From Micrococcales bacterium (GTDB lineage: Bacteria; Actinomycetota; Actinomycetes; S36-B12; UBA10799): a stretch of DNA of 64,000 bases. The notes under the pieces are model-generated. The model did no database searches. It saw only the letters and a list, made by a program, of their open reading frames with translations, and was not told where the DNA came from. The stretch is taken from positions 64,933 through 128,932 of the forward strand of contig JADJCR010000003.1 in the NCBI GenBank assembly GCA_016703125.1. The letters run 5' to 3'. Below, in pieces: positions 18,347-39,716 of this stretch (positions are counted from its first letter, which is position 1; the number at the start of each line of letters is the position of its first letter). The position numbers and the translations under genes were made by a program.

Positions 18347-18359
18347 GTTCCGGCTCCCC

Positions 18360-19384
18360 TCAGATGCTCACGGTGTCGTGGAGGAAGGACTCGATGCGTC
18401 CTTCGTGGTAGGCGCGCAGCGCAGCGGTCGGCTGCTCCAGGCGCGGCATGATGTACCAGGCCAGAGGCCCTTCTCGGTGTGCAGCCGGTTCTCGCTCTGG
18501 TCGTAGATGATCGACTGGGCGGAATCCATGACCTCGTCGGTCGCCTCGACCCCGCGTGATGCCGGCAGGCAGTGCATGAACCTGGCGTGCTCCGGTGCGC
18601 GGGCGAGCAGGCCGGCGTTGACCTGGTAGCGCGGCTTGAATGCCTTCACGCGATCCGGGATCTCGTCCTCCTGGCCGAACCACCACCAGAGGTCGGTGTA
18701 GATGAAGTCGGCGTTGACGACCGCATCCTCGACGTCCTCCGTCTCGAGGTACCGCCCGCCGTACGTCTCCTGGTTCTTGGCGAGTTCGTCGAGCACCGTC
18801 GGCCACTGGGCTTTGATGCCGTACTGCTCGGGCCGGGCGTGGATGAACGTTCCGCCCAGCATGGTGACGATCTGGGCCGTCGAGGTGCAGACGTTGGTGG
18901 CGTCGCCGACGAAGACGACCGTGAGATCCGAGAACGGCTTGTCGGTGTGCTCGGTCATCGTGAACACGTCGCACACGGCCTGGGTGGGGTGGTTGTAGTC
19001 GGTGAGTCCGTTGATGACGGGGACCTCGGCGTGCTCGGCGAAGTCGGTGACCGTCGCATGCTTGAATGCGCGGATCTCGACCGCATCCACCATGCGGGAC
19101 AGGACCTGCGCGGTGTCCTTGATGTTCTCCTTGGCCCCGAGGTGGATCTCGCCGGGCTTGAGGTACAGGGCGTGGCCGCCGAGTTTGGTCATCGCGACCT
19201 CGAACGAGACGCGGGTGCGGGTGGAGGCTTCCTCGAAGATCATTCCGAGGGAGGCGCCCTCCAACAACCGCGGGCAGGCGTTCTGTTTGTCGGCCTGCTT
19301 GAGCAGCGAGATCAGGGACATCTGGGCGCGGATGGTCTCCGGCCCCAGGTCCTGGGTGTCGATGAAGTTGCGAGCAGTTCGCAT
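18360..19384 (-). pseudogene. ptcA: putrescine carbamoyltransferase-like transcarbamylase, frameshifted near the C-terminus
   Basis: STRTR and HCLP motifs are present. The ornithine SMG loop is replaced by DLWWWFGQ. A C-terminal extension (LAWYIMPRLEQ...FLHDTVSI) is in the frame of ORF 18360-19484. One base is missing near 18463-18468. Confidence 0.75.
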
Positions 19385-19578
19385 CGAAGAGACAACCTTC
19401 CTGTCGAGAGGTCGTCGAGAGCGGCGGACGGGTGGGCCTCGCCCGCCCCGGTCGGCGGTCCCTTTGTGAGGGAACATCCACCACTGTACGCCGGACTTGA
19501 GCGTGCGCTCAACTCGGGTCCACAACGGGAAAACGCCACCCCGTGGCGCTTACCGTGATCGTGAAGGGGGGTAGGTCC

Positions 19579-22408
19579 ATGACGCAGGAGGGCTCGCGAC
19601 CGCCCACGGTGATCGACATCGAGAGCCTCCCCGACCCGCACATGGTCCTGACGGCTGTGCGCGACGACGCCCGGCGCATCGTTGACTTCGTGTACACCGG
19701 GGTCAACGAGGCAGCCCTGGCAGATCTGGGTATCCCACGGGAGAAGGTGCTGGGTTCCACACTGCTCGAACTGGCGCCGCTGACCGGTGACGACGTGCTG
19801 CTGGAGCGGTTCATCGAGGTGGTGGACAACGACACGGTGCTGGTTCTGGACAGTTTCCAGTATCCCGACTCGTCCCCGAACCGTGCGCTGCGCTCCTACG
19901 ACGTCAGCGCCACGAGGATCGGAGACGGTCTCGGCTGCTCCTGGTGGGAGGTCACGCAGCGTGACCGCAACGAACGGGAACTTGCCCGCGCGGAAGCCAG
20001 GATGCGTACGACGCTGGACTCCCTGCTCGATCCCCACGAGATGCTCACGCCCATCCGCGACGACGCCGGTCACATCGTGGATCTGGAGTACGTGCAGGTT
20101 AACCGTGCCAGTTGCCGCTACCTGGGCATGTCGCGCGACGAGCTGGAGGGACATCGCCTCGGCGACATCTGGTCCGGCGCGGCCAAGGACTTCGTGATGC
20201 AGTGCGCCCGGCAGGTGCTGGCGACCGGTCAGCCGCTGCGGGTGGACGAGCAGGAGGTTGTCACGCCGCGCGGTGACATCCGGGTGTTCGACATCCGCGG
20301 CGTGCTCATCGACGAAGCCTTGAGTTTCACCTACCGGGACGTGACCAAGCGGGTCGCGCAGGCACGGGAGGTGGCGCAGTCACGGGAGTACTACCGCTTG
20401 GTGGCCGAGAACGCCTCGGAGATGGTCTTCCGCTCGGAGTCCGACGGCACGCTGTCGTGGGTCAGCCCGTCGGTCGCCCGCACCTCGGGTGGCCCATCGA
20501 CCAGATCCAGGGGCAGAGTTTGCGCGATCTCATCCATCCCGACGACCTGCCGGTCGTCACGGAACTGCAGAAGTCGGCTATCGCGGCCGGTGAACTCACC
20601 GGGAACGTACAGTGCCGGATGGCCACTGCCGATGGTGGCTGGCGCTGGATGAGTGTCCTGGGCCGGTCAATCGTCGACGAGCGCGGCCAGGTGATCGGCG
20701 GTGTGGACGCCATCCGGGACATCCAGGCCGAGCACGACGCGCTGGTGGCACTCGCCGAGTCCGAGGAGCGCTTCCGCCGTTCGATGATGGACGCGGCGAT
20801 CGGCATGGCCATGGTCGGTGTTGACGGCAGGTTCGTGAGTGTCAATCCCGCACTCTGTGCCTTGTTGGCCCGTGACGAGCGCACCTTGATGGGCAGTACG
20901 TGGCAGGAGTTGACTCACCCCGACGACCTCACCACGGACGCATCCCTGGTGGATGACGTGTTCGCCGGCCGCCGTGACACCTACCGATTGGCCAAGCGCT
21001 ACCTGCGCCCCGATGGCACTGTGGTCTGGGCCGACCTCACGGTCTCCGGTGTGCGGGCGGAGGACGGTCGGCTCGCGCATCTCATGGCACAGGTCGTCGA
21101 CATCACCGAGAGTGTGCACGCCCGGGAGGCGCTGGCGCGCAGCGAGGAGCACTTCCGCCTGCTGGCCGAGAACTCTTCGGATGTCGTGTTCCGCGCCTCG
21201 TCGGCCGCCGTGCTGGAGTGGGTCTCGCCGTCGGTGATGGACGTCCTGGGCTTCGCGCCGCGCGAGGTTGTGGGGGCGCCGGTTCTCGACTTCGTGGAGC
21301 CGGAGGACCTCCCGCCCGATCTGCACCTGGACCCTCGCAACGCGGACACCATCGACTTCGTGGGCAGAGTCCGCACCGCCGCGGGTGCGTCGTTGTGGAT
21401 GGACATCGCCGCGCGTCCGGTGCTCGGCGAGGACGGGTCGGTCATCGGCCGGGTCGGCCGGCTGCGGGACGTGCAGGCGCAGCACGACGCGCAGGAGGCG
21501 TTGCGGCGCAGTGAGCAACTGTTCCGCACGGCCATGGAATCGGCGCCGACGGGGATGGCGGTGGTCGGCTTGGACCGGGAGTTCCTCCAAGTGAACCCGG
21601 CGCTGTGCCGTCTGCTCGGGCGCACGGAGGAGTGGTTGCTCGGGCGCAGCGTCAGTGACGTGCTCGACCCCCTCGACGACGACCTCGACCGCCGGCTTCG
21701 TTCCCAGATCCTGGCCGGTCTGATGGCGTCGCTGACTCGCGACCACCAGATGATCCGCTCGGATGGTGAGCGGGTGCTCGTCGAGCAGTCCATCGGCCTG
21801 CTGCGTGACGAGCAGGGCCGGGCCACCGCCTACGTGTCGCAGTTCGCCGACGTCACCGAGGCCAGGGCGACCCGTGAGCAACTGCGGTTCCTCGCCACGC
21901 ACGACTCCTTGACCGAGTTGCTCAACCGCCGGGAACTGGTCACGCGGATCTCCGGGGTCTCGCGCAGACTCCCCGCACCGGGATCCACGTGGGTGTGCTG
22001 TTCATCGACCTCGACGGACTGAAGTCGGTGAACGACACCTACGGGCATGCCGTCGGCGACGAGGTGATCGTGACCGTCGCCCGCCGCGTCCGGGACAGGG
22101 TGCGGGTCAACGACGTGCTGGCCCGCTTCGGCGGAGACGAGTTCGTCCTGGTGCTGCCAGCCATCCACGGCGTCGATGACGTGGCGCGCATCTGCGAGGA
22201 GTTGCATCGGGCGGTGACGCAGCCGATGGCCGTCGGCGAGCGCACCATCGTCATGACCATGAGCGTCGGCGTGGCCGTGGTGTCGCCGGGAGAGGATCCG
22301 GACAGCGCCTTGCGCCGGGCCGATGCGGCGTTGTACCGGGCGAAGCGGGAAGGCCGGGCCCGCACGGTCGTCTACGACCCCCGGCTCGATGCCACCGAGC
22401 CTGCCTGA
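19579..22408 (+). pseudogene. multi-PAS sensor diguanylate cyclase (GGDEF), two frameshifts
   Basis: Three consecutive ORFs (19543-20652, 20457-22022, 21989-22408) encode contiguous PAS repeats and then GGDEF (RFGGDEF). Junctions lie near 20470-20476 and 21945-21965. ATG 19579 follows GAAGGGGGG. Confidence 0.85.
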
Positions 22409-22453
22409 AGGTAGCCTCAGCGCCCGCGACGGGTTGCGGTTAGTCTGCGGATC

Positions 22454-23572
22454 ATGGCCCGAGTACTGAAACTGATCCTGCCGCTGGCGATGGCGACCAG
22501 CGTGCTGGCGGCTCCGGCGGTGGCCCACGCCGACACGGTGTGGCTGTGCCGTCCCGGGGCGAGCCCCAACCCCTGTGATGGATCGCTGAAGACGACGATC
22601 CGCACCCCCGGCAAGGCGCCGCGGGTCGTGACGCCCAAGCCCGCCAAGAAGCCGGCGATCGACTGCTTCTACGTGTACCCGACGGTCAGTGAGCAGCCCA
22701 CGGTCGTTGCCGACCTGGCCAAGGACCCGCAGGAGATCGTCATCGCCAAGCACCAGGCGGCGCGCTTCAGTCAGGTCTGCGATGTGTACGCACCGATGTA
22801 CCGGCAGATCACCCTGAAGGCGATCCTGGGGACCGCGACTCCCACCCCGCAGGACCGGGAGGTCGGCTTCGACGACGTGAAGGCGGCATTCGCCGAGTAC
22901 CGTGCCGCGCATCCTGATCGGGGATACGTCCTCATCGGGCACTCGCAGGGGTCGGGGGTACTGAAGCGGCTGATCCGGGAGGTCATCGAACCCGATGCGG
23001 CACTGCGCGCGGACATGGTCTCGGCGCTGCTGCTCGGCACCAGTGTCGCGGTGCCGGTCGGGAAGGCGGTGGGCGGTGACTTCAGCAGTGTGCCGTTGTG
23101 CACCCGGCCCCGGCAGGTCAACTGCGTCATCTCCTACTCGACCTTCGGTCAGGAGCCGCCGGACAGTTCCTTCGGCCGGGTGCGTCCCGACAGCGTCGGC
23201 CTGGACCCGAACGTGCAGTACGAGGCGGCCTGCACGAATCCGGCGGCGCTGAAGGGCGGTTGGTCGCGCATCGACACGATCCTGCGGACCGAGCCGATCC
23301 CGGGCCTGCTGGGTGTGGCGACGGGTATCACCTACGGCGGGACCCCGCCCACGGCGAAGACCGCGTGGCTGACCCCCAAGGGCCGCTACAAGGCCAAGTG
23401 CATGCGCTCCAACGGCGCCCACGTGCTCATGGTCAAGGGTGTCGGGAAGGCCAAGGCACTCCAGCCCGCACCGACCCCGACGTGGGGGCTGCACCTGCTC
23501 GACGCGAACCTGCCGCTCGGGGACCTCATCGACGTGGTGCGCGTGCAGTCCAAGGCGTTCAGCGCGCGATGA
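22454..23572 (+). CDS. secreted DUF3089-type alpha/beta hydrolase
   Basis: Signal peptide, CFYVYPT motif and nucleophile elbow GHSQG. Confidence 0.7.
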   Translation: MARVLKLILPLAMATSVLAAPAVAHADTVWLCRPGASPNPCDGSLKTTIRTPGKAPRVVTPKPAKKPAIDCFYVYPTVSEQPTVVADLAKDPQEIVIAKHQAARFSQVCDVYAPMYRQITLKAILGTATPTPQDREVGFDDVKAAFAEYRAAHPDRGYVLIGHSQGSGVLKRLIREVIEPDAALRADMVSALLLGTSVAVPVGKAVGGDFSSVPLCTRPRQVNCVISYSTFGQEPPDSSFGRVRPDSVGLDPNVQYEAACTNPAALKGGWSRIDTILRTEPIPGLLGVATGITYGGTPPTAKTAWLTPKGRYKAKCMRSNGAHVLMVKGVGKAKALQPAPTPTWGLHLLDANLPLGDLIDVVRVQSKAFSAR

Positions 23573-24414
23573 CGCGGATCGTCGCGCTCGCACGGGCCGA
23601 CGTGGACACTCTGCTGGAATGGGCGGCCGCTGAGGGCTGGAATCCCGGGGACGAGGCCGAGGTGTTCTGGAACACCGACCCGCAGGCCTACCTCGGTGTG
23701 CGCGACGACGACGGCCGTCTCATCGGTGCCGTCGCCACTGTCGACTACGGCGGGCGGCTCGGCGTGATGGGCCTGTTCATCGTGGCGCCGCCGCACCGGG
23801 GCCGCGGATTGGGCCGGCAGTTGTGGTATCACGGCCGGGACACGCTGCTGGAGCGACTCGAACCGGGCGCGCCGATCGCCATCGATGCCGTGCCCGCGAT
23901 GGCCCGCTTCTACCGGGACAGTGGTTTCAGGCAGACCCACGACCATCGCCGCATGCGCATCCTCAGCACCGTCGAGGACGTGCCGGCCGCAGTGCGCCGG
24001 GTCACCGCGCCGCTGGGCAGTCTGCCCGACCTGGACACCCGATGTTTCGGCGCTCCGCGCCCGGGGTTCCTCGGGCCCTGGTTGGCGCAGCCGGATCACG
24101 TGGCTGTCGCCCATGTGGATGACCGCTTGAGCGGATACGGGGTATTGCGTGGCTGCCGGCACGGATTCAAGGTCGGGCCGCTGTTCGCGCAGTCGGCGGC
24201 AACGGCTGATGCGCTGTTCCGGGGACTGACTGCGGGGATCCCGGCAGGCTCCGACGTGTTCGTGGATGTCCCCTCCGTCAACGAGTCGGCGGTGCAGTGG
24301 GCCGCGCGCCGTGGTGGCCAGGAAGTGTTCACCTGCGCCCGGATGTACCACGGTGCGGCGCCGGCGGCCGATTGGGCCTCGGTGTTCGGGGTCACCACTC
24401 TCGAACTCGGTTGA
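23569..24414 (+). CDS. GNAT family N-acetyltransferase
   Basis: ATGA overlap with the upstream gene; acetyl-CoA motif HRGRGLGRQL. Confidence 0.7.
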   Translation: MTRIVALARADVDTLLEWAAAEGWNPGDEAEVFWNTDPQAYLGVRDDDGRLIGAVATVDYGGRLGVMGLFIVAPPHRGRGLGRQLWYHGRDTLLERLEPGAPIAIDAVPAMARFYRDSGFRQTHDHRRMRILSTVEDVPAAVRRVTAPLGSLPDLDTRCFGAPRPGFLGPWLAQPDHVAVAHVDDRLSGYGVLRGCRHGFKVGPLFAQSAATADALFRGLTAGIPAGSDVFVDVPSVNESAVQWAARRGGQEVFTCARMYHGAAPAADWASVFGVTTLELG

Positions 24415-24564
24415 TGCCTGTGCCGCACCAGGTTGTTGCGGCGTGCAGGTCAGTGTGATCGCCGTCACCAGTGGGCGTGTCCTAGGTCACGCGTAGACAG
24501 GTATCAGCGAGGGAATCACCGAAGCGACCTCAAATGTCGTCGTCGTCGAGGAGTTCCCCGACCC

Positions 24565-25125
24565 ATGAACACAAAGACCCTGGTCGCCGGCATCGCCGCA
24601 GCGCCCGTGTTCCTCGGTGCAGCCGTCGTGCCCAGCACCGCAGCGGTGCAGCCCGCCACGTCCGCGGCTGCTGCGCCGGCTGTCAAAGCCAAATCCACCG
24701 ACCGGACCAAGCGCGCCTCGCGTGCCGCCGGTGTCTCCATGCGCACCAAGGGAACGCAGTACAGCCCCACCCGGGCCGCGATGCGCCTGGAGCGCTGGGC
24801 CAAGCGTGGTACGCGCGGGTACCACAACCAGTGCCTGCGTCTGGCTGACAACGCTTACCAGCCGAAGGGCAACCGCACCAGCACGGCCTTGAGCCAGTGG
24901 AAGCGGGCCAAGCGCAAGGGATATGCCCATCCGCACAACCGCCGGCCCCCGGTGGGGGCGCAGATGTTTTGGCGGACCTCCAACCCCGCCGGCCACATCG
25001 CGACCTACGTCGGTAACGGCAAGGCCGTGACTAACATGCCGGGCGGCGCGGTCCGCAAGATCAACTGGAAGCGCATGAACCAATGGGGTCCCTACCTCGG
25101 CTGGGCCGAGCCGTTCTACGGCTGA
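24565..25125 (+). CDS. secreted CHAP/NlpC-P60-like cysteine peptidase-fold protein (paralogue 1)
   Basis: Signal peptide, then a conserved C-terminal block with Cys (NQCLRLAD) and His (AGHIATYVG). GAGGAG lies upstream of the ATG. Confidence 0.65.
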   Translation: MNTKTLVAGIAAAPVFLGAAVVPSTAAVQPATSAAAAPAVKAKSTDRTKRASRAAGVSMRTKGTQYSPTRAAMRLERWAKRGTRGYHNQCLRLADNAYQPKGNRTSTALSQWKRAKRKGYAHPHNRRPPVGAQMFWRTSNPAGHIATYVGNGKAVTNMPGGAVRKINWKRMNQWGPYLGWAEPFYG

Positions 25126-25191
25126 GACACGTCGCGAATACAGCCCTGCCGCGGGCCACCTCGACCATCGAAGAACCGTCTGGAGAACACT

Positions 25192-25809
25192 GTGAAACGC
25201 ACCGCTTCGCTGATCGCCGGCGTCATGGCGGTGCCGGTGCTAGCCGGTTCCGTCGCCGCCTCCACCCCCCAGGCCCCGGCGCAGCCACAGATCCACCTGG
25301 CAACCGCGGGCACTCTGGTGGCCGCGACTCCGGGCAGTGCACGTGACACGGACCTCGTCCACGCCGCAGCCTGGGCCGAGCAGGACGATGCTCGCCAACT
25401 CCGGCGGGCTGCGCGGTCCGCGGTCTTGCGCACCTACGGCACGGCGAACACGGCCGAGGAGGCCGTGGGCCTGCTGAAGAAGTGGGCACGCGAGGGCGTC
25501 GGCGGATACCCCAACCAGTGCCTGCGCCTGGCCGATGACGCCTACCGCGCCTCCGCGCGCACCACGACCGCGCTGGCACAGTCGAGCCGGGCCAAGGAGG
25601 CCGGAGTCGCCTACCCGGACAGTCGCGACATCCCGGTGGGTGCGCACATGTTCTGGCGGACCGATCACCCGGCCGGGCACATCGCCACCTACGTGGGGGA
25701 CGGCAAGGTCGTCACCAACATGCCGGGCGGCAGCATCAAGATCGTCGATTGGCACAAACTCAACGAGTGGGGTCCCTACCTCGGCTGGGCCAACCCGTAC
25801 TATCGCTAG
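25192..25809 (+). CDS. secreted CHAP/NlpC-P60-like protein (paralogue 2)
   Basis: Same C-terminal block (NQCLRLADDAY ... AGHIATYVGDGK ... WGPYLGWA). GTG start after GGAGA. Confidence 0.65.
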   Translation: MKRTASLIAGVMAVPVLAGSVAASTPQAPAQPQIHLATAGTLVAATPGSARDTDLVHAAAWAEQDDARQLRRAARSAVLRTYGTANTAEEAVGLLKKWAREGVGGYPNQCLRLADDAYRASARTTTALAQSSRAKEAGVAYPDSRDIPVGAHMFWRTDHPAGHIATYVGDGKVVTNMPGGSIKIVDWHKLNEWGPYLGWANPYYR

Positions 25810-25842
25810 CCTCCCCGGGTCGGCGCCCACGATGATGGGCGG

Positions 25843-27540
25843 GTGACCGCCTCGTTCCTGCGCACCTGGCTGCCCGGCCTGACGCCGGAACTGCGCCCCT
25901 TCGAGCGGCACAACGTCATCGCCGGGCTCACCGTCACCGCCTACCTCGTGCCCCAGGTGATGGCCTACGCGATCCTCGCCGGACTCTCCCCGGTCACCGG
26001 TCTGTGGGCCGCCTTGGTCGCGGTTCCGCTGTACGCCCTGCTCGGGACGTCGCGCTGGCTCAGTTTCGGGCCAGAGTCCAGCGTCGCCGTGACCGCCGCA
26101 GTGATCGTGCCGGCGGTGGCCGCCGGCGGCACCTCCCCGGCCGCGGTCGCTTCGGCGCTGGCGTTGGCGGTCGGTGTGGTGGGCCTGCTGGCAAGCCTCC
26201 TGCGGATGTCGTTCGTGGCGGACCTGCTCGGCCGGCCCATCCTCGTCGGGTACATGGCGGGCATCGCGGTGCTCATGATCGACAGCCAGCTCGAACGTGT
26301 GACCGGCGAGTCGGTACCTGGCGACCCGGGGGTCCTCGAGCATCTCTGGCTGGTGATCGGTACGACCCCGCAGTGGTCGGCGGTGATCACCGCGGCCGGG
26401 GTGCTGGCCGTGCTGGTGGGGTTCGCCCGCACGCGTCTGCGCCCGTTCGCGCCATTGATCTCCCTAGTGGTGGGCGCCGCGATTGCAGCGGCGCTGTCGG
26501 CAAGTGGCCAGCCGGTGGAACTGCTCGGCGACATCCCGGCGGGACTACCCACCCCTGCGCTCCCGTCGGTACCCGCGTCGCTCGTGCCGGATCTCATGCT
26601 GGCCGCGGTGGGGGTATTGCTCGTGGCGTTCGCCGATGCCACGCTGACCGGGCGGTCGTTCCACCTCGTGCAGGACCCGCCTCTGCGGGCCCCCACCGAG
26701 TTGCGGGCCTTGGCGGTGGTGAACGTGGCCGCGGGATTCTTCCGCGGGATGCCGGTGTCCACCAGCGGCAGTCGCTCAGCGGTTGCCCGCGCGAGCGGTG
26801 CCACATCGCAGGGCTACTCGATCGCCGCCGCATTGTTCCTCGCCGTGGTCCTGCTCGTGGCCGGTCCCGTCCTCGAGGTAGTTCCGCAGGCGGCGCTGGG
26901 TGCGCTGGTGGTGTACGCGGCGGTGCTGCTCATCGACGTGCCGGGGTTCCGGGGGTTGTGGCGGTTCCAGCGCTCGGAGTTCCTCGTGGCCCTCGTGACC
27001 ACGGCCGGCGTGCTGGTGTTCGGGGTCCTGTACGGGGTGCTCATCGCCGTGGGTCTCTCGGTGCTCCTGCTGCTCTTCGAGGTGGCTCGGCCGCACTCGG
27101 CGGTACTGGGTTTCGTGCCGGACCTCGCGGGCATGCACGACATCACCGACTTCCCCCAGACCCGCGAGGAGCCGGGCCTGCTGATCTTCCGGTACGACTC
27201 GCCCCTCTTCTTCGCCAACGCTGACAACTTCCTCACGAATGCGCGCACGGCGGTCCAGGAGCGGATGCCGGGCGTGGAGTGGTTCGCGCTGCAGAGCGAG
27301 GCGATCGTCGAGGTGGATTCGACCGCGGTGGAAGCCCTCGAGGTGCTCGTGCGAGAGCTGCGAGCCGCCGGCGTCCGCTTCGTGCTGGTGCGGGCCAAGA
27401 GCGAGTTGCTCGACGACCTGTCCCGAACTTCACTGATCGGCGAGATCGGCGAGGAGTACATCTTCCCGACCCTGCCGACACTGGTCGGCGCCTTCCGGTC
27501 CCGGAAGTTCTCCGAGCCCGGAAGCGACGAGTCATCCTGA
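25843..27540 (+). CDS. SulP family anion transporter with C-terminal STAS domain
   Basis: 565 aa; polytopic membrane domain plus STAS (FRYDSPLFFANA). Confidence 0.9.
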   Translation: MTASFLRTWLPGLTPELRPFERHNVIAGLTVTAYLVPQVMAYAILAGLSPVTGLWAALVAVPLYALLGTSRWLSFGPESSVAVTAAVIVPAVAAGGTSPAAVASALALAVGVVGLLASLLRMSFVADLLGRPILVGYMAGIAVLMIDSQLERVTGESVPGDPGVLEHLWLVIGTTPQWSAVITAAGVLAVLVGFARTRLRPFAPLISLVVGAAIAAALSASGQPVELLGDIPAGLPTPALPSVPASLVPDLMLAAVGVLLVAFADATLTGRSFHLVQDPPLRAPTELRALAVVNVAAGFFRGMPVSTSGSRSAVARASGATSQGYSIAAALFLAVVLLVAGPVLEVVPQAALGALVVYAAVLLIDVPGFRGLWRFQRSEFLVALVTTAGVLVFGVLYGVLIAVGLSVLLLLFEVARPHSAVLGFVPDLAGMHDITDFPQTREEPGLLIFRYDSPLFFANADNFLTNARTAVQERMPGVEWFALQSEAIVEVDSTAVEALEVLVRELRAAGVRFVLVRAKSELLDDLSRTSLIGEIGEEYIFPTLPTLVGAFRSRKFSEPGSDESS

Positions 27541-29294
27541 CAGGTTGTACAGCGTCACACCGTCGACGGTGACGGACGGGAAGTTCTGCTGTACCCAGGT
27601 GCTGATCTGGGAACTCGTCTGCCCGCCGGCGATGAACCAGTGGATCCGCCCGTCCGCCACGTACTGCTGGAACCGCTCGAGGGTGGGGGAGGGGTCACTG
27701 CCGTTGAAGCCACCGATCGCCATCACGGGGTGGCCGGTGGCCAACTGGTAGCCCGCGGCGGTCTGACTGCCCACCCCGGCGGCGACCCACGTGTAGTCGG
27801 CCGCGTCCTGGGCGAGAGTGGTCACGAGGTCGCCGCTGACGTCGGGGGAGTCCAGCAGCCCGCCCGGGCCGCCAGCGGGCACGCGTTGCCATTTCCTCCG
27901 GTGCCGCCGGGCCACCCACTGTGGCGCCGCCGGCTCAGGCCGGCAGTGGGTAGCGCCCCGCTGGTCACCCGGGATGCGGTCTGCAGGCTGAAGGCCGGAC
28001 CGGACAGCAGCATCGCGACAATCAGGGTGCCCGCCAACGCGGTGCGCACCCTCGGCCCGCTGAGGTCGCCGAGTCCGAGGGCGATTCCGGCCACCACGGC
28101 CACCGCGATGACCAGCCAGCCGAGCAGGTCGTAGTCGCGCGCACGAGCAACGTGCCGCCGTACAGCGCGGAGCAGGCCAGAAACACCGCGAGGCCGCATA
28201 GGCCCCGCGCCGCCACAGCAGGGTGACCGCCGTGGCCCGCCAGCACAGCGATCGCCGGTGCCAGCGCAACCGCGTAGTACTGGTGGATGATGCCCTGGCT
28301 GAAGCGAAGACGGCAAACGTCACGACCAGCCAGCCGCCCCACAGGATCGTGGACACCCGCTGCATCCGGCCGTCGGCCAGCACCCAGGCGAAGACGATCG
28401 CCGCGAGCGCCGCAGGCGGCGATCTGCCGGCCCAGTCGGCGTCGAACATCCGGTGCCAGCTCGGCGTCCCCAGCCACCGCCGCCCGCCCGGCACCGCCGC
28501 CCACGCTGCCGGTCTCATCGCCGGTCCGCCGCCCCAGGCCGTTGTAACCGAGGATGAGTTCGAGTGCGGAGTCGGTCTGCGAGCCGCCGATGTACGGGCG
28601 GATCGACGCGGGCACGAGTTCCACCACGGCCACCCACCATCCGCCGGCGACCACCAGGGCCGGCTGCAGTGGTCAGCATCGCGATCCGCCGCCGCGAGTG
28701 GACCAGGATGGCTGCGACGAACGCGGGGAGGACCAGGAAGGCCTGCAGACTCTTGGTGAGGAACGCGAGCGACCGCCGCCAGGACGATCAGCGCAGCCGC
28801 TCGGTTCGGTGCCCGCGCCACGGCGTAGGTCGCGGCGACCAGCAGCGGACCGCGGCATCGGGGTTGTTGAACCGGAACATCAGCGTGGCCACCGGCGTGG
28901 TGGCGAGGATGACCCCGGCGAGCAGTCCGGCTGGCCTACCGAAGTAGCGCGCCACGAACAGATACAGCAGTCCGACGGTCGCCACGCCCATCAGCGCCTG
29001 CCGGGCGAGATGCTCAGGAACTGAGGCCGAACAGGCGCACGACAGGGCCATGACCCAGATGGCGGCAGGCGGCTTGTCGATTGTGATCGCGTTGGCGGCA
29101 TCGCTGGAGCCGAAGAAGAAGGCCTCCCAGTTCTGCGAGCCGGCCTGCGCGGCCGCGGGTAAGCTGCTGGCCCAGCCGGACAGGCCCCAGATGTACAGCA
29201 CAGCGGTACCGGCAAGTGCGCCGCAGGGCCGGACGTGTCGGTCGCGGGCCTCGGCGGGGGTGGTGGCGGCGGCCCGTTCGAGCGTGGCGGTCAT
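27532..29294 (-). pseudogene. GT39/ArnT-like (GT-C) glycosyltransferase, multiply frameshifted
   Basis: Family blocks appear in alternating frames: FFFGSSDAANAITIDKPP, FRFNNPDA, ARAPNRAAALIVLAAVA, GGWWVAVVELVP...GYNGLGR, GTPSWHRMFDADWAG, SQGIIHQYYAVALAP, RDYDLLGWLVIAV, YTWVAAGVGS...MAIGGFNGSDPSPTLERF. Confidence 0.8.
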
Positions 29295-30438
29295 CGAGTC
29301 CTCCTCGGAAGATCCAGTGGCGGAACAGGACGAACCGCACAAGGGTGGCGATCGAGTTGGCGGCGGTGAGGACGGCCAGTTCCATGCCTCTGCTCAAGGT
29401 CTCCGGGAGCAGGGCTGCCGTCGCGCTCGTGATGACCAGCGCGACGGCCAGCACCGCGTAGCCCTTGGCCTGGTGCAGCCACCAGTCGGCGCGCCCCGAG
29501 ATGCCGAACGTGAAGCGGCGGTTCACCGCGGTGTTGGTTGCGGTCGCCAGGAGCAGGGCAGCGACGTTGGCGACCACCGGCTCCACCAGGGTGCGCGCCA
29601 ACAGGTAGAGGACGGCGTAAACGGCGGTCGAGCCCAGGCCCACGGCCACGAACCGCAGCACCTGACCCGGCCCACGATCCTGGGGGACGTCGGCCATGCG
29701 GATGCGCCCGGAGGCGATGTCACGACCCAGGCGGGCGATCCCACGAAGGTCAGCCAGCGCGGTGGCCATGATGTCCACGCTGGAATCCGGGTCGTCCACC
29801 CAGTCCACGGGCACTCGTGGATGCGCAGGCCGGTGCGTTCGGCGATCACGAGCAGTTCGGTGTCGAAGAACCAGTCTTCATCCTTGACCTGCGCCAGCAG
29901 CGCGGGCAGCCGGTCGGCTCGCACAGCCTTGAACCCGCACTGGGCGTCAGAGAACCGTGACCGCAGAGTCAGCCGCAGCAGCCGGTTGTAGCTGCGTGAG
30001 ATGAACTCCCGCTTCTGGCCCCGGGTGACTCGTGACGCCGTGCTCAGGCGCGTGCCGATGGCGACGTCGGAGTGCCCGACAGCAGTGGCGCGACCAGGAC
30101 CGGCACGAGGCCGGTGGAGAGGTCGACATCCATGTAGGCGACCACCCTGGCGGCCGCACCGCCCCAGGCCTGGCGCAGTGCGCGCCCGCGACCCTTCTGC
30201 TCCAGGCGCAGGTACTCCACCTCCCGGAAGGCCGGTCGCAAGTTCCCGGGCGATCCGCGGAGTCGCATCGTTGCTCGCGTTGTCCGCGATCAGGATGCGA
30301 TGGGTCCAGGTTGCGCCCGCGCGTATTCGACCAGGTCAGATGCTGCGACGCAGCGCATTGCTCGTTGTACACGGGGACGACGATCTCACGTCGACCAGGC
30401 GGGTCCGGGGTGTCCCAGGCGACGTCGGTGGCTGTCAT
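29291..30438 (-). pseudogene. GT2 polyprenyl-phosphate glycosyltransferase fused to a GtrA domain, multiply frameshifted
   Basis: IVVPVYNEQ, RILIADNASNDATPRIAREL, LEQKGRGRALRQAW...YMDVDLST, QCGFKAVRADR...DWFFDTELL and the GtrA block (NTAVNRRFTF) lie in different frames. ATGA overlaps occur at both ends. Confidence 0.8.
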
Positions 30439-30885
30439 CTGACCTGATCCTCGGCGGAACCTGCGGCGGCGGCGGCGTCCGCCTGCTCCTGGGTGAGTTC
30501 GGGTTCGTGACGGCGGTCTCCAGGAATCCGTCGGGACCACCGGGCAATCGGCCGAGGAACTCCTGGAGCAGGTCCTGGTTGACGGTGCCATCGGCGTTGA
30601 ACAGCATGGCGGCCAGGTCCTCCCCCTGGCTGGTGACATGCCCGGTTGGGCCGGGCCGAACTGGCCGGGACCGCCGAACTGTCCTGGACCGGTCGTGGCT
30701 GAGGCACCGGTGTTGCTGAGCCCCCATGCGCCTGCCGCCACCGCCAGCAGCGAGGCGGCGACCGTGGTGGCGCCCAGGATGTGGGCCTTGCGACGTTCGC
30801 TGGTGTAGAGGGCGTACCAGCGGCTCTGTGCGGCGGGTTCGGTCTGCGGGTCCGGGGATGCCTGGGGGTTCGGTGCGGTGTCCAT
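30435..30885 (-). pseudogene. small membrane-anchored hypothetical protein, apparently frameshifted
   Basis: The N-terminal TM (ILGATTVAASLLAVAAGAW), the middle (DLAAMLFNADGTVNQDLLQEF) and the tail (ELTQEQADAAAA...VR, stop) sit in three frames. The stop overlaps the GT2 start. Confidence 0.45.
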
Positions 30886-30991
30886 GTCCGCACTGTGCGG
30901 CGTGCAGGTCGGAACCAGTCGGGAGGACGGTGAGAGTCCGGTGAGGAGCCTCGGACGTGGTCGGGCCGCGTAGAACACCTAGGGTGGGGCG

Positions 30992-32203
30992 GTGCCGGTC
31001 AACCCCACCCGTCGCCTGGCGGTCCTCACCGCGCTGCGGTGGTTCCCGGTCGGGCTCGTGGTCCCGGTCTTGGTGCTGCTGCTCGGGGCCCGCGGCCTGC
31101 CACTGGACCAGGTCGGGCAGGCGATGGCCCTCTACGGCATCGTGACCCTGTCCTTGGAACTGCCGACCGGTGGGTTGGCCGACGCGTGGGGGCGACGTCC
31201 CGTGGTGGTGGTCGCTGCGGTGCTCAACGCGGCCGGGCTGCTGGTCCTGGCGTTCTTCGGCGCACTGCCCGCGATCCTGGGCGGGATCGCCATGCTGGCA
31301 TCGGCCCGGGCACTGTCGTCCGGGCCGATGGAATCCTGGTTCGTCGACTTCATGCACGAACTGGGGGATCACCACATCGAACCCGGCCTGGCCAGGGGGC
31401 AGATCGCCGAGTCCTTGGCCCTCGGGCTCGGCTCGGTGATCGGTGGCCTGCTGCCCGTGGCGTTCGCTTCCCTGCCCCACACCGGTCAGGGTTTCCTGTC
31501 CTTGTCCGTGCCCTTTGTGCTGGCGGCGTGCATGCAGGTGGTCTTCGCGGTGGCCGCCGTGTTGCTGCTGACCGGGGAGACTGCACGGGAGCGGACCTCC
31601 GTGGCCTCGACGGTGGTAGCCGGTGCCCGGCGCAGTGTGAAGGACGCACCTGTGCGGCGGGTCATGGTCGTGGCCATGTGTCTAGGGGTCATGCTCAGCG
31701 GCATCGAACTGCTGGCGCCCAACACTTTCGCGGATCTGCTCGGCAGTCCGACTGCCGCATCGGGGCTGTACGGCGTGCTGACAGCGGTGGCCTTCGGCAC
31801 CGCCGCGCTCGGTGCCGCGATGAGCGCCCGGATCCCGGGGCGGCGTCCCGCGGTGGCTGCCGGGGCTTACGTCACCGGTGCCGGGATCGTGCTGCTGGTC
31901 GGGGTGCCGCTGATCGGCGTGGCCGCGGCGGCCTTCTTGCTCTTCTACGTGGTGATCGGAGTGCAGGGTCCGGTCATGGCCGGGCTGCTGCATGACCGCG
32001 TGGACTCGACGGTGCGCAGCACGATGATGTCCGTCGAGAGCCTTGCCCTGCAGGGTGGCGGCGCGTTCGCGAGCCTGGTGGTCGGTGCGCTGTCGGCGGG
32101 TGTGGGACTGGTGGCCGGCCTCGCAGTCATCGCCGTCGCGGCGGTGGCCGCCGCCGGCGCCCTGTGGCGCGATCTGGGGCAGTCAAGCTCCTCGCGGGTG
32201 TGA
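30992..32203 (+). CDS. MFS transporter
   Basis: 403 aa, about 12 TM helices, MFS loop motif GGLADAWGRRP. Confidence 0.85.
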   Translation: MPVNPTRRLAVLTALRWFPVGLVVPVLVLLLGARGLPLDQVGQAMALYGIVTLSLELPTGGLADAWGRRPVVVVAAVLNAAGLLVLAFFGALPAILGGIAMLASARALSSGPMESWFVDFMHELGDHHIEPGLARGQIAESLALGLGSVIGGLLPVAFASLPHTGQGFLSLSVPFVLAACMQVVFAVAAVLLLTGETARERTSVASTVVAGARRSVKDAPVRRVMVVAMCLGVMLSGIELLAPNTFADLLGSPTAASGLYGVLTAVAFGTAALGAAMSARIPGRRPAVAAGAYVTGAGIVLLVGVPLIGVAAAAFLLFYVVIGVQGPVMAGLLHDRVDSTVRSTMMSVESLALQGGGAFASLVVGALSAGVGLVAGLAVIAVAAVAAAGALWRDLGQSSSSRV

Positions 32204-32259
32204 CGGATGTCACGTGAATACCGGTACTTCGGGACGCGAAATGTGGGTCACTGGAAAAT

Positions 32260-32793
32260 GTGCGCCGCCTTCTGTGCGCGGGAATCCTCGCCTTGCTGCC
32301 CCTCGGGGTGACTCCTGCGCAGGCCGCGCCCGGCTTCGGGATCGGCACGGAGATTGGGGCCGGTTGGTCGCAGGATCGCGAACTGCAGGTCTCCCGGGAC
32401 GAGCCGATGCGGCCCATCGGGGTGACCCGTTCCCCGCAGAAGGCGGTGGCCTACCTGCAGAAGCTGGCCGAGGATCGCGCCAGCGGGTACTACGACCAGT
32501 GCCTGCGGCTGGCCGATGACGCCTACCTGCCCAAAGGCCCCCGGGTGGCCACGGCCTTCGATCAGTGGCGGCGGGCCAAGCGGGCCGGGGTCGCGCACCC
32601 CGATGACCGCGAACCCCCGTTGGGGGCGCAGATGTTCTGGGATCCCGGCCATGATGCCGGGCACGTCGCTACCTACGTGGGGGACGACCGGGCAGTGACC
32701 AACATGCCCGATGGCACCGTCAAGCGCATCAAGTGGCGAGAGATGAACGACTGGGGCCCGTACCTGGGCGGGGCCCTGCCGTACTACAAGTAG
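32260..32793 (+). CDS. secreted CHAP/NlpC-P60-like protein (paralogue 3)
   Basis: Signal peptide plus the same Cys/His block (DQCLRLADDAY ... AGHVATYVGDDR ... WGPYLGG). Confidence 0.65.
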   Translation: MRRLLCAGILALLPLGVTPAQAAPGFGIGTEIGAGWSQDRELQVSRDEPMRPIGVTRSPQKAVAYLQKLAEDRASGYYDQCLRLADDAYLPKGPRVATAFDQWRRAKRAGVAHPDDREPPLGAQMFWDPGHDAGHVATYVGDDRAVTNMPDGTVKRIKWREMNDWGPYLGGALPYYK

Positions 32794-32853
32794 CCGTCCA
32801 CAGATTCTGAGCGGGATCTTCCGGCCGACGGGCGCAGTCGGTGGACTGGACCC

Positions 32854-33726
32854 ATGCCGCTGAGTGCCACCGTCGACGAGGAACTGCTCTGCGCCCCGCT
32901 GCTCGACGAGGCCGCCTGGTCGCGGCTGCGGGGCCGCACCATCGTCCTGCAGCCGTGCGGCCATTCCGGCTTCCGCGGGTGTCCCCCACTGGGCACCCGC
33001 CGCTTCGTGCACGCCCGCGACAGTGCGTGTGCAGCCCGTGAGTCGCCCGAGCATCTGCACCTCAAAGCGGTGGTCGCCCGGGCAGCGGCCCAGGCCGGGT
33101 GGCAGGCCGACACCGAGGTGCCCGGAGACGGCTTCGTGGCCGACGTGCTCACCCGCGGCCCGTCCGGTCAGGTGGCTTTCGAGGTCCAGCGCTCCGCGCA
33201 GATCCTGCGCGAGTACGAGCGCCGGCAGGCCGGCTACGAGGCGGCTGGCATCCGCTGCGTCTGGCTGGTCGCGCGCATCCCCACCGGTCACCGGGCCGGA
33301 GCGGGGTTGCCCCTGTTCCTCGTGGACGGATGGCGGGAGCAGCCACGATGCGTCGTCAGCGGGCGGTCGATGGCGGTGCCGGTCTTCGTGCAGGCACTGC
33401 TGGCGGGGCAGTGCCGGTGGCGCGACAGTGTGCCGGGGCGGGCAGTGACCGTGGAGACGCTGCGCCAGATGTGCCCGGTGTGTGCCACCGAGCGGGAGGT
33501 GGAAGTGGCCCGCTGGTCGCGCGGCGCCTGTGTCTGCGGGCTGCCCATCCTGCACAGCACCGGTAGCATCGGATGGTCGCAGGCGCGCAGGTGCTGCGGT
33601 CATTGGGGACCCATGCTCACACTGGCCGCGGCAGTGCGAACCGAACCGAGCGCCCGGGAAGTGCCCGCCGGGCGTTGGTGCGTCAGTTCTTCAGAATCCC
33701 GTCTGTCACCAGAGCCGCCCGGGTGA
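32854..33726 (+). CDS. CoiA-like competence-family nuclease (PD-(D/E)xK) with Zn-ribbon tail
   Basis: CoiA-type arrangement: N-terminal Cys/His cluster, ESPEHLHLK, ADV...AFEVQRS, and a C-terminal CPVC...CVCG. Confidence 0.55.
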   Translation: MPLSATVDEELLCAPLLDEAAWSRLRGRTIVLQPCGHSGFRGCPPLGTRRFVHARDSACAARESPEHLHLKAVVARAAAQAGWQADTEVPGDGFVADVLTRGPSGQVAFEVQRSAQILREYERRQAGYEAAGIRCVWLVARIPTGHRAGAGLPLFLVDGWREQPRCVVSGRSMAVPVFVQALLAGQCRWRDSVPGRAVTVETLRQMCPVCATEREVEVARWSRGACVCGLPILHSTGSIGWSQARRCCGHWGPMLTLAAAVRTEPSAREVPAGRWCVSSSESRLSPEPPG

Positions 33727-34615
33727 GGGTGTCCACGGCCCCGCTGGTCGGCAGGTTCTCACGTTGTTGGTAAGCCAGCACGGCGCGCATCGTGGCTGGG
33801 CCGAAAAAGCCGTTGGCACCCGGCACTCCGAGCGCCTTCTGCACCGCCAGGACCTCCTTGGACTGGCTGCCGCGCCACAGCCGCGGGCCGGGGTTCGCCG
33901 ACGTGCGGGTCAGGCGTGGTGGATAGCCACAAGGTCGCCGGTTCGGCTGCCCGGGGTGCAGTGGCGCCGGTTCGTTCTGGAAGACGCGGCAGGGTCCGTA
34001 GTCGGTGGGAGCCGGCGTGCCGTCCCAGAAGCTGGTCCGGCCCAACGCGCCCGCCCACGAGAACGAGAAATGGACGTGGTCGGTGTGGGGGTTGGAGTTG
34101 GTGAGTCTGCGCCAGCCGTCGGACGCCCGGTAGGCGCCCCAGATGCGGTGGTTGTAACCGATGTACATGATCCCGAGCCGGCGGGCCCAGTAAGCCTGCT
34201 GGCCATCCGGCCCCTTCGCCATGAGCCAGTTGATGAGGTCGGTCGCCGCGGCGAACGCCTTGGGGTTCTTCACGTCTGCATGCCAGTCCCACGCCCGGCC
34301 GTCGAGGTGTTCGCTCGTGCCGTCGTCGGTGCAGTTGCGGGTCGAGCCCCAGTCCTGGGTCTGCGGGTAGGTCTTCATGACCAGGTCGCGGAACCCCTTG
34401 ATGCCCTTGCGCCATTTGGGGTCGCAACTGGTCTGTGGCACGTAGGCGGTGAACCCCTCGACCCGGCCCGCCGGTGCGGCGTACTGGCCCAGGCCGCTGC
34501 TGTTGTCCATCACGGGCACCGGCAGCCGTTGTGGCTTCGCCTGGCTGGGCAGAGTGGCCAGCCCCGGTGCGGCGGCGACACAGCACAGGGCTGCGACGAA
34601 TGCGATCTTGCTCAC
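33683..34615 (-). CDS. secreted M15/LAS-family zinc peptidase-like protein with C-terminal peptidoglycan-binding domain
   Basis: GTG 34615 follows GAAGGAG. Signal peptide; SxHxxGxAxD (SEHLDGRAWD) plus HxH (HVH); C-terminal PG_binding_1-like repeat. Confidence 0.6.
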   Translation of the reverse strand: MSKIAFVAALCCVAAAPGLATLPSQAKPQRLPVPVMDNSSGLGQYAAPAGRVEGFTAYVPQTSCDPKWRKGIKGFRDLVMKTYPQTQDWGSTRNCTDDGTSEHLDGRAWDWHADVKNPKAFAAATDLINWLMAKGPDGQQAYWARRLGIMYIGYNHRIWGAYRASDGWRRLTNSNPHTDHVHFSFSWAGALGRTSFWDGTPAPTDYGPCRVFQNEPAPLHPGQPNRRPCGYPPRLTRTSANPGPRLWRGSQSKEVLAVQKALGVPGANGFFGPATMRAVLAYQQRENLPTSGAVDTLTRAALVTDGILKN

Positions 34616-34829
34616 CCGTGCTCCTTCGTCCTGTTGCGCGCCAGACTGTACAGGTTGAGTGCGCAATTGCGCCAAACGCAAGGCAATCGGGTGACCTGCG
34701 CGCCGGGCATCGTCACTGGGCGTGACCGGGGCGTCTGCACGTGACGGGGTGCGGCGGGCGCTCGCGGGCGCCCCATCGTTGTCCCGCCGCCACGTGCGCC
34801 CTCGCCGCCGGGTCAGCGGGCAGGCGGCA

Positions 34830-35282
34830 TCAGCAGCAGGCGCTGGCCGAACTGACCGTCAAGGTCTGTGGGGTGCAGCAGCCCGCAGGCTGAGCTCTGT
34901 CCACGGGGTTGTCATCGGTGATCGTGTAGACCTCCCAAGGTGCGCCGGCCGGGTCGTTGACCCACACCTTGTCCTGCTGTGCGTAGCAGCAGACCGTGTC
35001 CATCTCCTCGGTGGTCTGCAGGCCCTCGTCGCTGAGGCGGTCAACGGCTGCCTGCACATCGGCGGTGGAGTCCACCTCGACACCGAGGTGGTTCAGGGCT
35101 CCTTCGGTGCCCGTGCCTCGGTCGGCGTTTTCGATGAGCACCAGCTTGAGCGGCGGATCCTGGATGGCGAAGTTCGCATATCCGGGGCGCCGCTTGTGGG
35201 GGGAGACACCGAACAACTTGCTGTAGAACTCGACCGACCCCTCGAGGTCGGCGACATTGAGTGCGAGTTGGACTCTGGACAT
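34830..35282 (-). CDS. arsI: ArsI/CadI-family VOC metalloenzyme (C-As lyase-like)
   Basis: 150 aa glyoxalase fold with a vicinal Cys pair (TVCCYAQQDKVW) and a Cys-rich tail. Confidence 0.8.
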   Translation of the reverse strand: MSRVQLALNVADLEGSVEFYSKLFGVSPHKRRPGYANFAIQDPPLKLVLIENADRGTGTEGALNHLGVEVDSTADVQAAVDRLSDEGLQTTEEMDTVCCYAQQDKVWVNDPAGAPWEVYTITDDNPVDRAQPAGCCTPQTLTVSSASACC

Positions 35283-35297
35283 GGGGCAGACTCCTCG

Positions 35298-35347
35298 TAT
35301 CGATGACTGTCAATGTGACCTTAGACAGAATATCGACTCTCGTCAAT
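35298..35347. promoter_or_regulatory. direct repeat TATCGA-N5-GTCAAT x2 in the arsI/arsR divergent region (candidate ArsR operators)
   Basis: 35298-35314 and 35331-35347 match at 12 of 17 positions, 33 bp apart, in an AT-richer intergenic stretch. Confidence 0.3.
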
Positions 35348-35478
35348 ATATGGCTCGATCCCTGGGCGACCGCGGCCTGTCGCCACGATGTTGGGAAGCG
35401 GCATCCGCGTCGGCGGCGATGCTCCTGCTGAGCCATGAGCGTTTGACTTCGGCCCAGTGCGGGAGGCACGATCGCTCA

Positions 35479-36156: not shown

Positions 36157-36254
36157 TCCGCGCCGACGCCGTCCCGCAGCGGCTGGATCGGCTGTCTCCT
36201 GCAGGTCTTCGCCAACTCGTCGAACGCGTCGTGAGTAACGCTGAAATGCTGCTG

Positions 36255-36659: not shown

Positions 36660-36693
36660 GGTCTTTCTCCTTGTTTGGGTAGCGGTGTTGCGG

Positions 36694-37798: not shown

Positions 37799-37808
37799 GA
37801 TCGAAGCG

Positions 37809-39702: not shown

Positions 39703-39716
39703 CCGGAAGGACAGGC

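Follow-up and report, generated by a model that had tools for sequence, protein, structure and literature searches.

Two-step lipid-linked sugar systems pair a GT2 enzyme with a GT-C glycosyltransferase, and include ArnC/ArnT, the GtrA/GtrB/Gtr-type systems, CsbB/GtcA/YfhO, YkcC/YkcB of B. subtilis, and the mycobacterial PpgS/Rv3632/Rv3779. A comparable module was found on the minus strand of the window (the whole 64,000-nucleotide stretch of DNA that was analysed), where positions 27532–30885 are occupied by genes for a small protein with an N-terminal membrane anchor, a GT2 protein with a GtrA domain, and a GT-C protein with PMT_2 and YkcB_C domains (Table 1). The likeness lies in a GT2 with a GtrA-type membrane domain that is translationally coupled to a PMT_2 + YkcB_C GT-C; the ATGA stop/start overlaps noted in the initial annotation at 30435–30438 and 29291–29294 are indeed retained in the sequence. 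The locus differs from the described systems by the fusion of GT2 and GtrA in one polypeptide, by a third partner that is a conserved but family-less membrane-anchored protein of ~160 aa, and by scores below the NCBIfam equivalog cutoffs for PpgS (NF058614, 25.3 vs 370 bits), ArnC (NF007986, 26.1 vs 529) and ArnT (NF009784, 24.5 vs 567). Judging from the families, the GT2-GtrA protein would attach a sugar to polyprenyl phosphate on the cytoplasmic side of the membrane, and on the outer side the ArnT/PMT-like GT-C would pass this sugar to an acceptor in the envelope. Wherever the operon is present, it is expected to be functional.

In the window, the peptide blocks of the three genes are spread across all three reading frames. 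The uncorrected GT2-GtrA gene is not scorable as one protein, and the domain scores were taken on the ortholog in L087, one of four related lineages (L081, L087, L088, and L089) in whose short-read assemblies intact syntenic operons were found. The intact GT2-GtrA ortholog (L087:6726–7886) scored 84.6 bits for PF00535 (cutoff 23.3) and 41.7 bits for PF04138 (cutoff 26.1), thus exceeding both Pfam gathering scores and belonging to this family, and its top match among solved structures was DPMS (5mlz, 1.7e-11). The GT-C ortholog (L087:7886–9703) scored 112.5 bits for PF13231 and 111.8 bits for PF24878, which identifies it as a PMT_2 + YkcB_C protein, with ArnT as top structural match (5ezm, 1e-6). 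After frame correction, the GT2-GtrA and GT-C genes of the window are 92 and 91.4% identical to those of L087, respectively, and contain zero stops. No Pfam or NCBIfam family matched the small protein, orthologs of which (140–160 aa) precede the GT2 gene in L081, L083, and L087–L089. The family-level assignment made beforehand, namely a GT2-GtrA polyprenyl-phosphate sugar synthase, an ArnT/PMT-like GT-C, and a small membrane protein, is thus upheld by the Pfam and structure matches.

Table 1. Coordinates of the operon, its flanking genes, the strain-variable segment and further indels in the window.
Feature	Position	Strand	Remarks
SulP/STAS anion transporter gene, intact, convergent with the GT-C gene	25843..27540	+	565 aa; overlaps the GT-C stop
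GT-C glycosyltransferase gene, PMT_2 + YkcB_C	27532..29294	-	~30 frameshifting indels, 29297 to 27883
GT2 + GtrA/DPMS-TM fusion gene, polyprenyl-phosphate sugar synthase type	29294..30438	-	~14 frameshifting indels
Small membrane-anchored protein gene, ~160 aa, operon gene 1	30438..30885	-	tblastn with L081 ortholog; frame track
MFS transporter gene, intact, divergent from the operon	30992..32203	+	403 aa
Strain-variable segment, ~2.96 kb, present here, missing from three conspecific assemblies	~27737..30692		holds 48 of 48 frameshifting indels
Background single-base deletions of the tract's error class: 18464 GG>G, 20483 CCC>CC, 21959 CC>C	18464..21959		differ from all three conspecifics
Further window-specific indels: 32973/32983 and 34705 (1 bp), 37923 (2-bp loss)			relative to all three conspecifics

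Indels were counted by DNA-DNA alignment to the L087 operon, the closest intact syntenic one (~93% DNA identity), and the comparisons with L088 and L089 agree. This alignment to intact orthologs replaced tblastn, by which the frameshifts were bridged with low identity and hence could not be counted. Relative to L087, the tract from 27742 to 30690 contains 53 gap events, 48 of them not multiples of 3, with the first and last frameshifts at 30649 and 27883. The small gene is open down to ~30650 and frameshifted beyond, and the last ~350 bp of the GT-C gene (the C-terminal YkcB_C part) stay in a single frame throughout. Between stretches that keep one frame for 30 bp or more, 16 frame switches were counted. 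The initial annotation had counted at least a dozen frame jumps by eye, which proved to be an underestimate: all 12 listed junctions were recovered (at 30355, 30225, 30078, 29814, 29297, 28853, 28768, 28661, 28486, 28305, 28136, and 27883), and the frame-aware alignment revealed more junctions, not fewer. Bases are missing from the window in 47 events and extra in 6 (101 vs 16 bases in total), and 39 of the 47 losses are of 1 bp (n = 29) or 2 bp (n = 10). As for the sequence context of the junctions, the 1-bp losses occurred at run lengths of 1 (n = 13), 2 (n = 14), and at least 4 (n = 2); since 27 of 29 thus fall at run length 1–2, they do not reflect slippage at long runs. Near the gaps, the frequency of mismatches is raised only slightly, so that sequencing errors, if these are the cause, would need to consist almost entirely of deletions.

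Both flanking genes are uninterrupted and of full length, as had been stated from the first reading of the sequence. The SulP protein is identical at 565 of 565 positions to a database protein (P0241, MBK6762614.1, “MAG: Micrococcales bacterium”) and 88.5% identical to the L081 ortholog across its full length, and its gene shows 0 gaps other than multiples of 3 relative to L087. The MFS transporter shares 85.6% identity with its L081 ortholog (residues 1–395) and has the same 403 aa in the conspecific assemblies L084–L086; its gene contains two such gaps relative to L087, which are C-terminal and mutually compensating. Exact-sequence look-ups with the SulP and MFS ORFs of the window yielded no recorded protein. 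The background rate rests on the 21.7 kb of flanking sequence that are comparable with the three conspecific assemblies, in which ~7 window-specific indels other than multiples of 3 were found (~0.3–0.4 per kb). This rate predicts ~1 event for the tract, compared to 48 observed, and the tract's density of ~16–18 per kb represents a ~45-fold enrichment, which is far beyond chance. The window-specific 1-bp indels outside the tract fall in short G/C runs and are mostly single-base losses. Those at 18464, 20483, and 21959 break the genes of an OTCase and a PAS sensor; the PAS protein has 943 aa in L084 and is represented in the window by ORFs of 369, 521, and 139 aa. Another 1-bp loss, at 36204, is seen in the comparisons with L085 and L086 alone. 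The entire window was also surveyed without recourse to homology, by GC3 phase switching and the tiling of high-GC3 ORFs, but this census did not tell the tract from ordinary gene boundaries and was dropped.

The frameshifts coincide with a structural variant. L084, L085, and L086 align at 99.0–99.7% identity to positions 15845–27736 and 30691–40497 of the window and skip the segment in between, with breakpoints at 27733–27736 and 30689–30694 that show 2–5 bp of microhomology. One junction is common to these three independent assemblies, and each bears SNPs of its own there. The deletion removes the entire GT2-GtrA gene and most of the small and GT-C genes. In the operon remnants outside the segment (27535–27736 and 30693–30885; 395 bp) 0 frameshifts were found, whereas ~6.4 are expected at the density of the tract (P about 0.002). 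An intact conspecific operon (identity of at least 99%) was not found in the GTDB species representatives, the JGI metagenome contigs, or the closest GT2 cluster: the GTDB species representatives, scanned with a GT2 fragment, yielded relatives of at most 61% identity; the JGI metagenome contigs, scanned with the L087 GT-C protein, contained matches of at most 76%; and every member of the closest GT2 cluster is 93.2% identical to the window fragment, which leaves no hidden conspecific allele there. The locus resembles strain-variable envelope-glycosylation islands in being present in some genomes and cleanly absent from others, with fixed breakpoints and conserved core flanks, but large replaceable islands differ from this small module of three genes, whose loss is a simple deletion at microhomologies, and neither mobile elements nor alternative cassettes were detected at the deletion site. 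Biologically, the locus shows a presence/absence polymorphism of an ordinary kind, in which a GT2-GtrA + GT-C envelope-glycosylation operon is either retained or missing. In this species, the operon is genuinely lost in other strains through the clean 2.96-kb deletion and not through frameshifts.

In its substitutions, the tract looks like an ordinary gene. Identity to L087–L089, counting substitutions, is 93.0% in the tract and 87–91% in flanking genes. With L081 as outgroup, 104 substitutions in the tract are specific to the window branch and 79 to the L087 branch, a ratio like that in the flanks (SulP 74/56, h186 26/16, PAS 117/104). Among 1077 frame-corrected codons 0 in-frame stops were found. 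The dN/dS of the frame-corrected operon is 0.20–0.34 with a bias to third positions, compared to 0.05–0.22 in the flanks, and the codon-position profile of the intact L087 branch is similar to that of the window tract. This is the pattern of a gene under purifying selection. The earlier impression of many indels and few substitutions, unlike an old decaying pseudogene, is thereby put on a quantitative footing, with 53 indels facing at most 104 substitutions and no excess on the window branch.

The frameshifted operon is very probably the product of a poor long-read consensus on a strain-variable segment and not a biologically inactivated pathway. This reading is preferred because small losses dominate, substitutions are not elevated, the frameshifts are confined to the variable segment, whose borders match the structural variant, and like errors occur elsewhere in the assembly. 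Caution is advised by the dN/dS of the tract, which is somewhat above that of the flanks, and by the dispensability of the operon in the species. The window would derive from a long-read MAG, most likely of nanopore R9 type, of an uncultured high-GC actinobacterium; the platform is suggested by the identity of SulP to a MAG protein, MBK6762614.1, whose accession series may belong to an activated-sludge nanopore MAG set. The SulP-MFS interval is polymorphic within the species, with operon-bearing strains beside strains carrying the ~2.96-kb deletion, and the assembler would have built the contig through the operon-bearing allele. The operon segment was probably backed by few reads from a minor sub-population, and because of this scarcity long- and short-read polishing may have failed there and left a near-raw, deletion-dominated consensus. 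The outcome is ~50 small deletions confined exactly to the variable segment, between well-polished flanks common to all strains.

Errors of this kind are familiar from low-coverage or microdiverse nanopore MAGs of the R9.4.1 era, in which deletion-dominated 1–2-bp errors fragment gene calls, and the single-base losses scattered over short G/C runs elsewhere on the contig are a further likeness. The tract differs from these cases by its density (~17 events per kb), which is far above that of typical polished consensus sequences, and by many losses at non-repeated bases instead of long homopolymers; both features point to a near-raw consensus from very few reads and not to the usual systematic homopolymer error. 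Nanopore indel errors depend on local coverage and polishing, and consensus indel frameshifts have been documented below ~40x coverage (PMC9262707). The pipeline of the activated-sludge set, which would apply to the window if the accession series does belong there, combined CANU with corMinCoverage=0 and Racon with --include-unpolished, by which poorly covered stretches are left uncorrected (PMC8012365). A cluster of apparent pseudogenes in a MAG can arise wholly from local consensus failure on a strain-variable segment, and such clusters would inflate pseudogene counts or suggest the loss of a pathway that was not lost. The signature could be sought in other MAGs without access to the reads: numerous short deletions unaccompanied by extra substitutions, their restriction to a segment missing in conspecifics, and like errors at low density elsewhere in the assembly. 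What underlies the cluster here is ordinary microdiversity of surface structures, represented by a GT2-GtrA + GT-C module in an uncultured actinobacterium.

Two explanations had been offered initially, a localised consensus or assembly failure and a recent, indel-biased inactivation of the pathway. The former is strongly supported, and the latter is disfavoured by the selected substitution record, the high indel ratio, and the coincidence with the segment. Genuine pseudogenes, that is, an operon deleted in some strains and decaying neutrally in the strain represented by the window, are very improbable. The deletion alleles of the three conspecific assemblies show that the operon is dispensable, which raises the prior for a retained copy being a real pseudogene; the slightly raised dN/dS points in the same direction, and so does L083, a related long-read MAG whose GT-C gene is likewise split. 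The natural ratio of indels to substitutions in bacteria is ~0.05–0.2 according to mutation-accumulation and pseudogene studies. In the tract this ratio is at least 0.5, ~5–25 times that of natural decay if this range is applied, and the 53 indels are accompanied by at most ~100 substitutions on the window branch, essentially no more than on the intact sister branch. Natural decay with ~50 indels would imply several hundred neutral substitutions (9–18% of additional divergence), but divergence is lower in the tract than in its flanks, no rise in the substitution rate is seen, and dN/dS does not approach 1. Nonsense codons are likewise lacking, the 1-bp losses do not cluster at long homopolymers, the lesions do not extend over the whole of the supposedly dead genes, as the intact remnants demonstrate, and the difference of only 0.3–1% from the deletion strains in the flanks leaves little time for decay. 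The substitutions thus led to the rejection of old-pseudogene decay. It is also very unlikely that the ~50 deletions are real products of a localised, almost purely deletion-type mutational process that left no accompanying substitutions, or of an unknown repair defect acting on this segment, running parallel to the outright deletion in sister strains.

Real, deletion-biased hypermutation localised to the glycosylation operon, or programmed frame-switching or contingency behaviour, would account for the extreme local density and the strong deletion bias, that is, for the raw pattern only, and is hardly credible. The 48 switches within ~2.8 kb (27883–30649) could not be decoded by any known recoding mechanism, like single-base losses occur sporadically in unrelated housekeeping genes of the same assembly, and we know of no process that yields almost only 1–2-bp deletions without substitutions. 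A contingency locus or programmed frameshift was rejected, as simple-sequence tracts and long homopolymers are absent at the sites and the switches are far too many. A chimeric misassembly, in which a 2.96-kb tract from a co-occurring lineage (for example one like L087) was spliced in at low coverage, is very improbable as well. It would explain why the tract has a lower dS to L087 (0.14–0.20) than most flanking genes (0.25–0.57), and the contig of L090, a 96%-identical lineage with a short-read assembly, terminates 5 bp short of the breakpoint, as if the assembly graph branched there. However, identity to L087 runs smoothly across the borders, with the remnants that the conspecific deletion strains also have, at 27541–27741 (96%) and 30691–30990 (91%), bracketing the 93% of the tract, the tract still differs from L087 by 7%, and the remnant ends join it in register. 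Whether the tract is chimeric or not, the frameshifts themselves would still be artefacts.

At ~68–70% G + C, the window is high-GC actinobacterial DNA. Between the SulP and MFS transporter genes lie three minus-strand genes whose conceptual peptides are spread across all three reading frames, and related metagenome contigs hold an uninterrupted syntenic version of this SulP-operon-MFS locus. In L081, the related contig used as outgroup, the order runs from MFS (minus strand) through genes for proteins of 155 aa, 387 aa (GT2+GtrA), and 601 aa (PMT_2+YkcB_C) to SulP (minus strand); in L087, the closest intact syntenic operon, and the similar L088 and L089 the operon products have lengths of 160, 387, and 606 aa. 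The intact L087 proteins matched PF00535 and PF04138 (GT2) and PF13231 and PF24878 (GT-C) above the Pfam cutoffs. For the GT2 protein, archaeal dolichol-phosphate mannose synthase (5mlz) and ArnC were the nearest solved structures; for the GT-C protein, it was ArnT (5ezm). No Pfam family matched the small protein of L087, and an NCBIfam search of the operon proteins gave no equivalog model at cutoff. The GT2-GtrA synthase and GT-C transferase named in the initial annotation hold at the family level according to the Pfam and structure matches, and at this level the predicted coupling of a polyprenyl-phosphate sugar synthase to a GT-C transferase is sound. Three secreted paralogues (~177–205 aa, mutual identity ~47–50%) bracket the SulP-operon-MFS block. 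Their orthologs at related loci gave only a weak CHAP (PF05257) match; they look like a small cell-wall hydrolase-like family, which adjoins the glycosylation locus in all relatives.

Genes flanking the three-gene operon (window coordinates)
Feature	Position	Strand	State
Secreted paralogue	24565–25125	+	
Secreted paralogue	25192–25809	+	
SulP/STAS transporter gene	25843–27540	+	intact
MFS transporter gene	30992–32203	+	intact
Secreted paralogue	32260–32793	+	

As tblastn spanned frame changes and was unusable for counts, DNA alignment to intact operons was used instead. Against L087 this yielded 53 gap events in 27742–30690, 48 of them with a length not divisible by three, and the comparisons with L088 and L089 agree. 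The at least 12 junctions initially claimed were thus an understatement, and the frame-aware alignment increased rather than reduced their number; all 12 listed junctions are among the 16 frame switches that stay visible when stretches of less than 30 bp in one frame are disregarded. Bases are missing from the window in 47 gaps (29 of 1 bp, 10 of 2 bp, 8 longer) and extra in the other six, amounting to 101 missing and 16 extra bases in the tract. The 1-bp losses are outside slippage-prone sites: 13 occur at unrepeated bases and 14 at 2-base runs (27/29 at run length 1–2), and only two at runs of at least four. Both ATGA stop/start overlaps reported as preserved were found, and the flanking genes proved uninterrupted as described, SulP having no frameshifting gap relative to L087 and MFS only a compensated C-terminal pair.

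The window SulP protein is identical over 565/565 residues to MBK6762614.1 (“MAG: Micrococcales bacterium”), and the window therefore comes from a metagenome-assembled genome (MAG). Three further assemblies of the same species, L084 (GCA_963853255.1), L085 (a 3.45-Mb contig), and L086, share 99.0–99.7% DNA identity with it over 15845–27736 and 30691–40497, and window ~27737–30692 is missing from all three. They have a common deletion junction (breakpoints 27733–27736 and 30689–30694, 2–5 bp microhomology), around which each carries private SNPs. Since the segment is missing from three conspecifics with private SNPs at one junction, the species is genuinely polymorphic for presence or absence of the operon. 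All that the deletion alleles keep is an N-terminal stub of ~67 aa from the small gene and a YkcB_C stub of 63–74 aa. A Gly-rich linker in the C-terminal part of the GT-C gene is also polymorphic for an in-frame indel of 33 bp (window ~27623–27631), even where this gene is a stub: L085, L086, and L081 have the insert, the window and L084 lack it, and L087 carries 24 bp at this site. L090 (JGI 3300001213), a short-read contig from a lineage with 96% identity, ends at window 27731, 5 bp before the breakpoint; branching of the assembly graph between operon-present and operon-absent alleles would produce such a stop. Exact look-ups of the window proteins, a genome-collection scan, a metagenome scan, and the nearest protein cluster gave no intact conspecific operon, which would have permitted a direct demonstration of “intact sequence plus errors.”

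All 48 frameshifting events are located between 30649 and 27883, within the segment missing from the conspecifics. The operon remnants outside it (27535–27736 and 30693–30885; 395 bp) contain none, compared to ~6.4 expected at tract density (P ~0.002). Pseudogene decay would not be expected to stop at the segment boundary; a consensus problem arising from a change of read support at that point would. Genuine neutral decay of the operon genes, for which the evident dispensability of the operon is the sole argument, is highly improbable, being contradicted by this match of frameshifts and boundary, by how little the window has diverged from the deletion strains, and by the substitution record. 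The tract has a substitution identity of 93.0% to L087–L089, above the 87–91% of the flanking genes. With L081 as outgroup, the three operon genes show 104 substitutions on the window branch vs. 79 on the intact L087 branch, and the asymmetry is similarly modest in flanking genes (SulP 74/56, h186 26/16, PAS 117/104). The frame-corrected operon has no stop in 1077 codons, a dN/dS of 0.20–0.34, and a retained third-position bias, and the mismatch rate is barely raised near gaps (8% vs. 6–7%). The early impression of many indels with few substitutions was thus borne out. On the window branch the ratio of indels to substitutions is 0.5 or more, and counting excess substitutions alone makes it far higher. 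Natural ratios in bacterial mutation spectra and pseudogene decay are roughly 0.05–0.2; fifty real indels would therefore bring several hundred neutral substitutions, which are missing from the tract.

Of the two alternatives originally offered, localised consensus failure is thus strongly favored by the boundary coincidence and the substitution record, and recent indel-biased inactivation is disfavored by the missing neutral substitutions. Localised deletion-only hypermutation or programmed recoding finds no support beyond the raw indel pattern. A chimeric splice of the tract from another lineage, which would likewise make the frameshifts an artefact, is unlikely given that identity to L087 shifts smoothly at the boundaries, from 96% and 91% in the two shared remnants to 93% in the tract. 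The operon frameshifts are real in the sequence file but very probably not in the organism; on this reading they are a localised consensus artefact over a strain-level presence/absence polymorphism, itself ordinary, of an envelope-glycosylation operon. Operon-bearing and operon-free strains would both have been in the sample, the operon path would have been retained in assembly although few reads backed it, and polishing would then have left a near-raw, deletion-rich consensus exactly over the minor-allele segment; low read support and failed polishing are what we infer here. The MBK6762614.1 accession series may belong to an activated-sludge MAG project. An activated-sludge MAG pipeline, whose settings bear on the window only if this assignment holds, combined CANU corMinCoverage=0 with Racon --include-unpolished and retained uncorrectable sequence (PMC8012365). 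The proposed mechanism is supported by the documented need of nanopore consensus for ~40x coverage or for polishing with short reads if frameshifts from indels are to be avoided (PMC9262707). The tract provides a worked example of recognising such artefacts without reads.

Elsewhere, the window shows the same fault in mild form, with private indels relative to all three conspecifics at 18464 (GG>G), 20483 (CCC>CC), 21959 (CC>C), 32973/32983, 34705, and 37923, and a 1-bp loss at 36204 relative to L085 and L086 only. We equate these with the “about eight” frameshifts noted initially outside the operon. The private indels are of 1–2 bp, lie mostly in short G/C runs, and probably are errors of the ordinary kind that remain after assembly. 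The ornithine carbamoyltransferase gene is broken up at 18464, and at 20483 and 21959 a PAS sensor gene of 943 aa falls into ORFs of 369, 521, and 139 aa. Their background density is ~0.3–0.4 per kb vs. ~16–18 per kb in the tract; a census by GC3 phase, made across the whole window with no use of homology, failed to set the tract apart. In L087, a short-read contig, the SulP gene neighboring the intact operon is called in two pieces of 227 and 330 aa and has an in-frame TAG (L087:10381–10418) in place of the window's Ser codon, either a true nonsense mutation or possibly a mistake in the sequence. The GT-C gene of the 77%-identical MAG lineage L083 (GCA_964267805.1) has one frameshift at ~11862, a single event and no burst, with gene calls of 274 and 320 aa for its two parts. 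Downstream, at window ~35.3–40.5 kb as placed by alignment to L084 16031–21701, lies an arsenic/redox-type cluster, annotated in the conspecific L084 locus only, with an ArsR/HTH_5-LMWPc fusion, an LMWPc phosphatase, a MIP channel, an HTH_5 regulator, an ArsP_1 permease, two Thioredoxin_3 ORFs, and an SBF/ACR3-type transporter.
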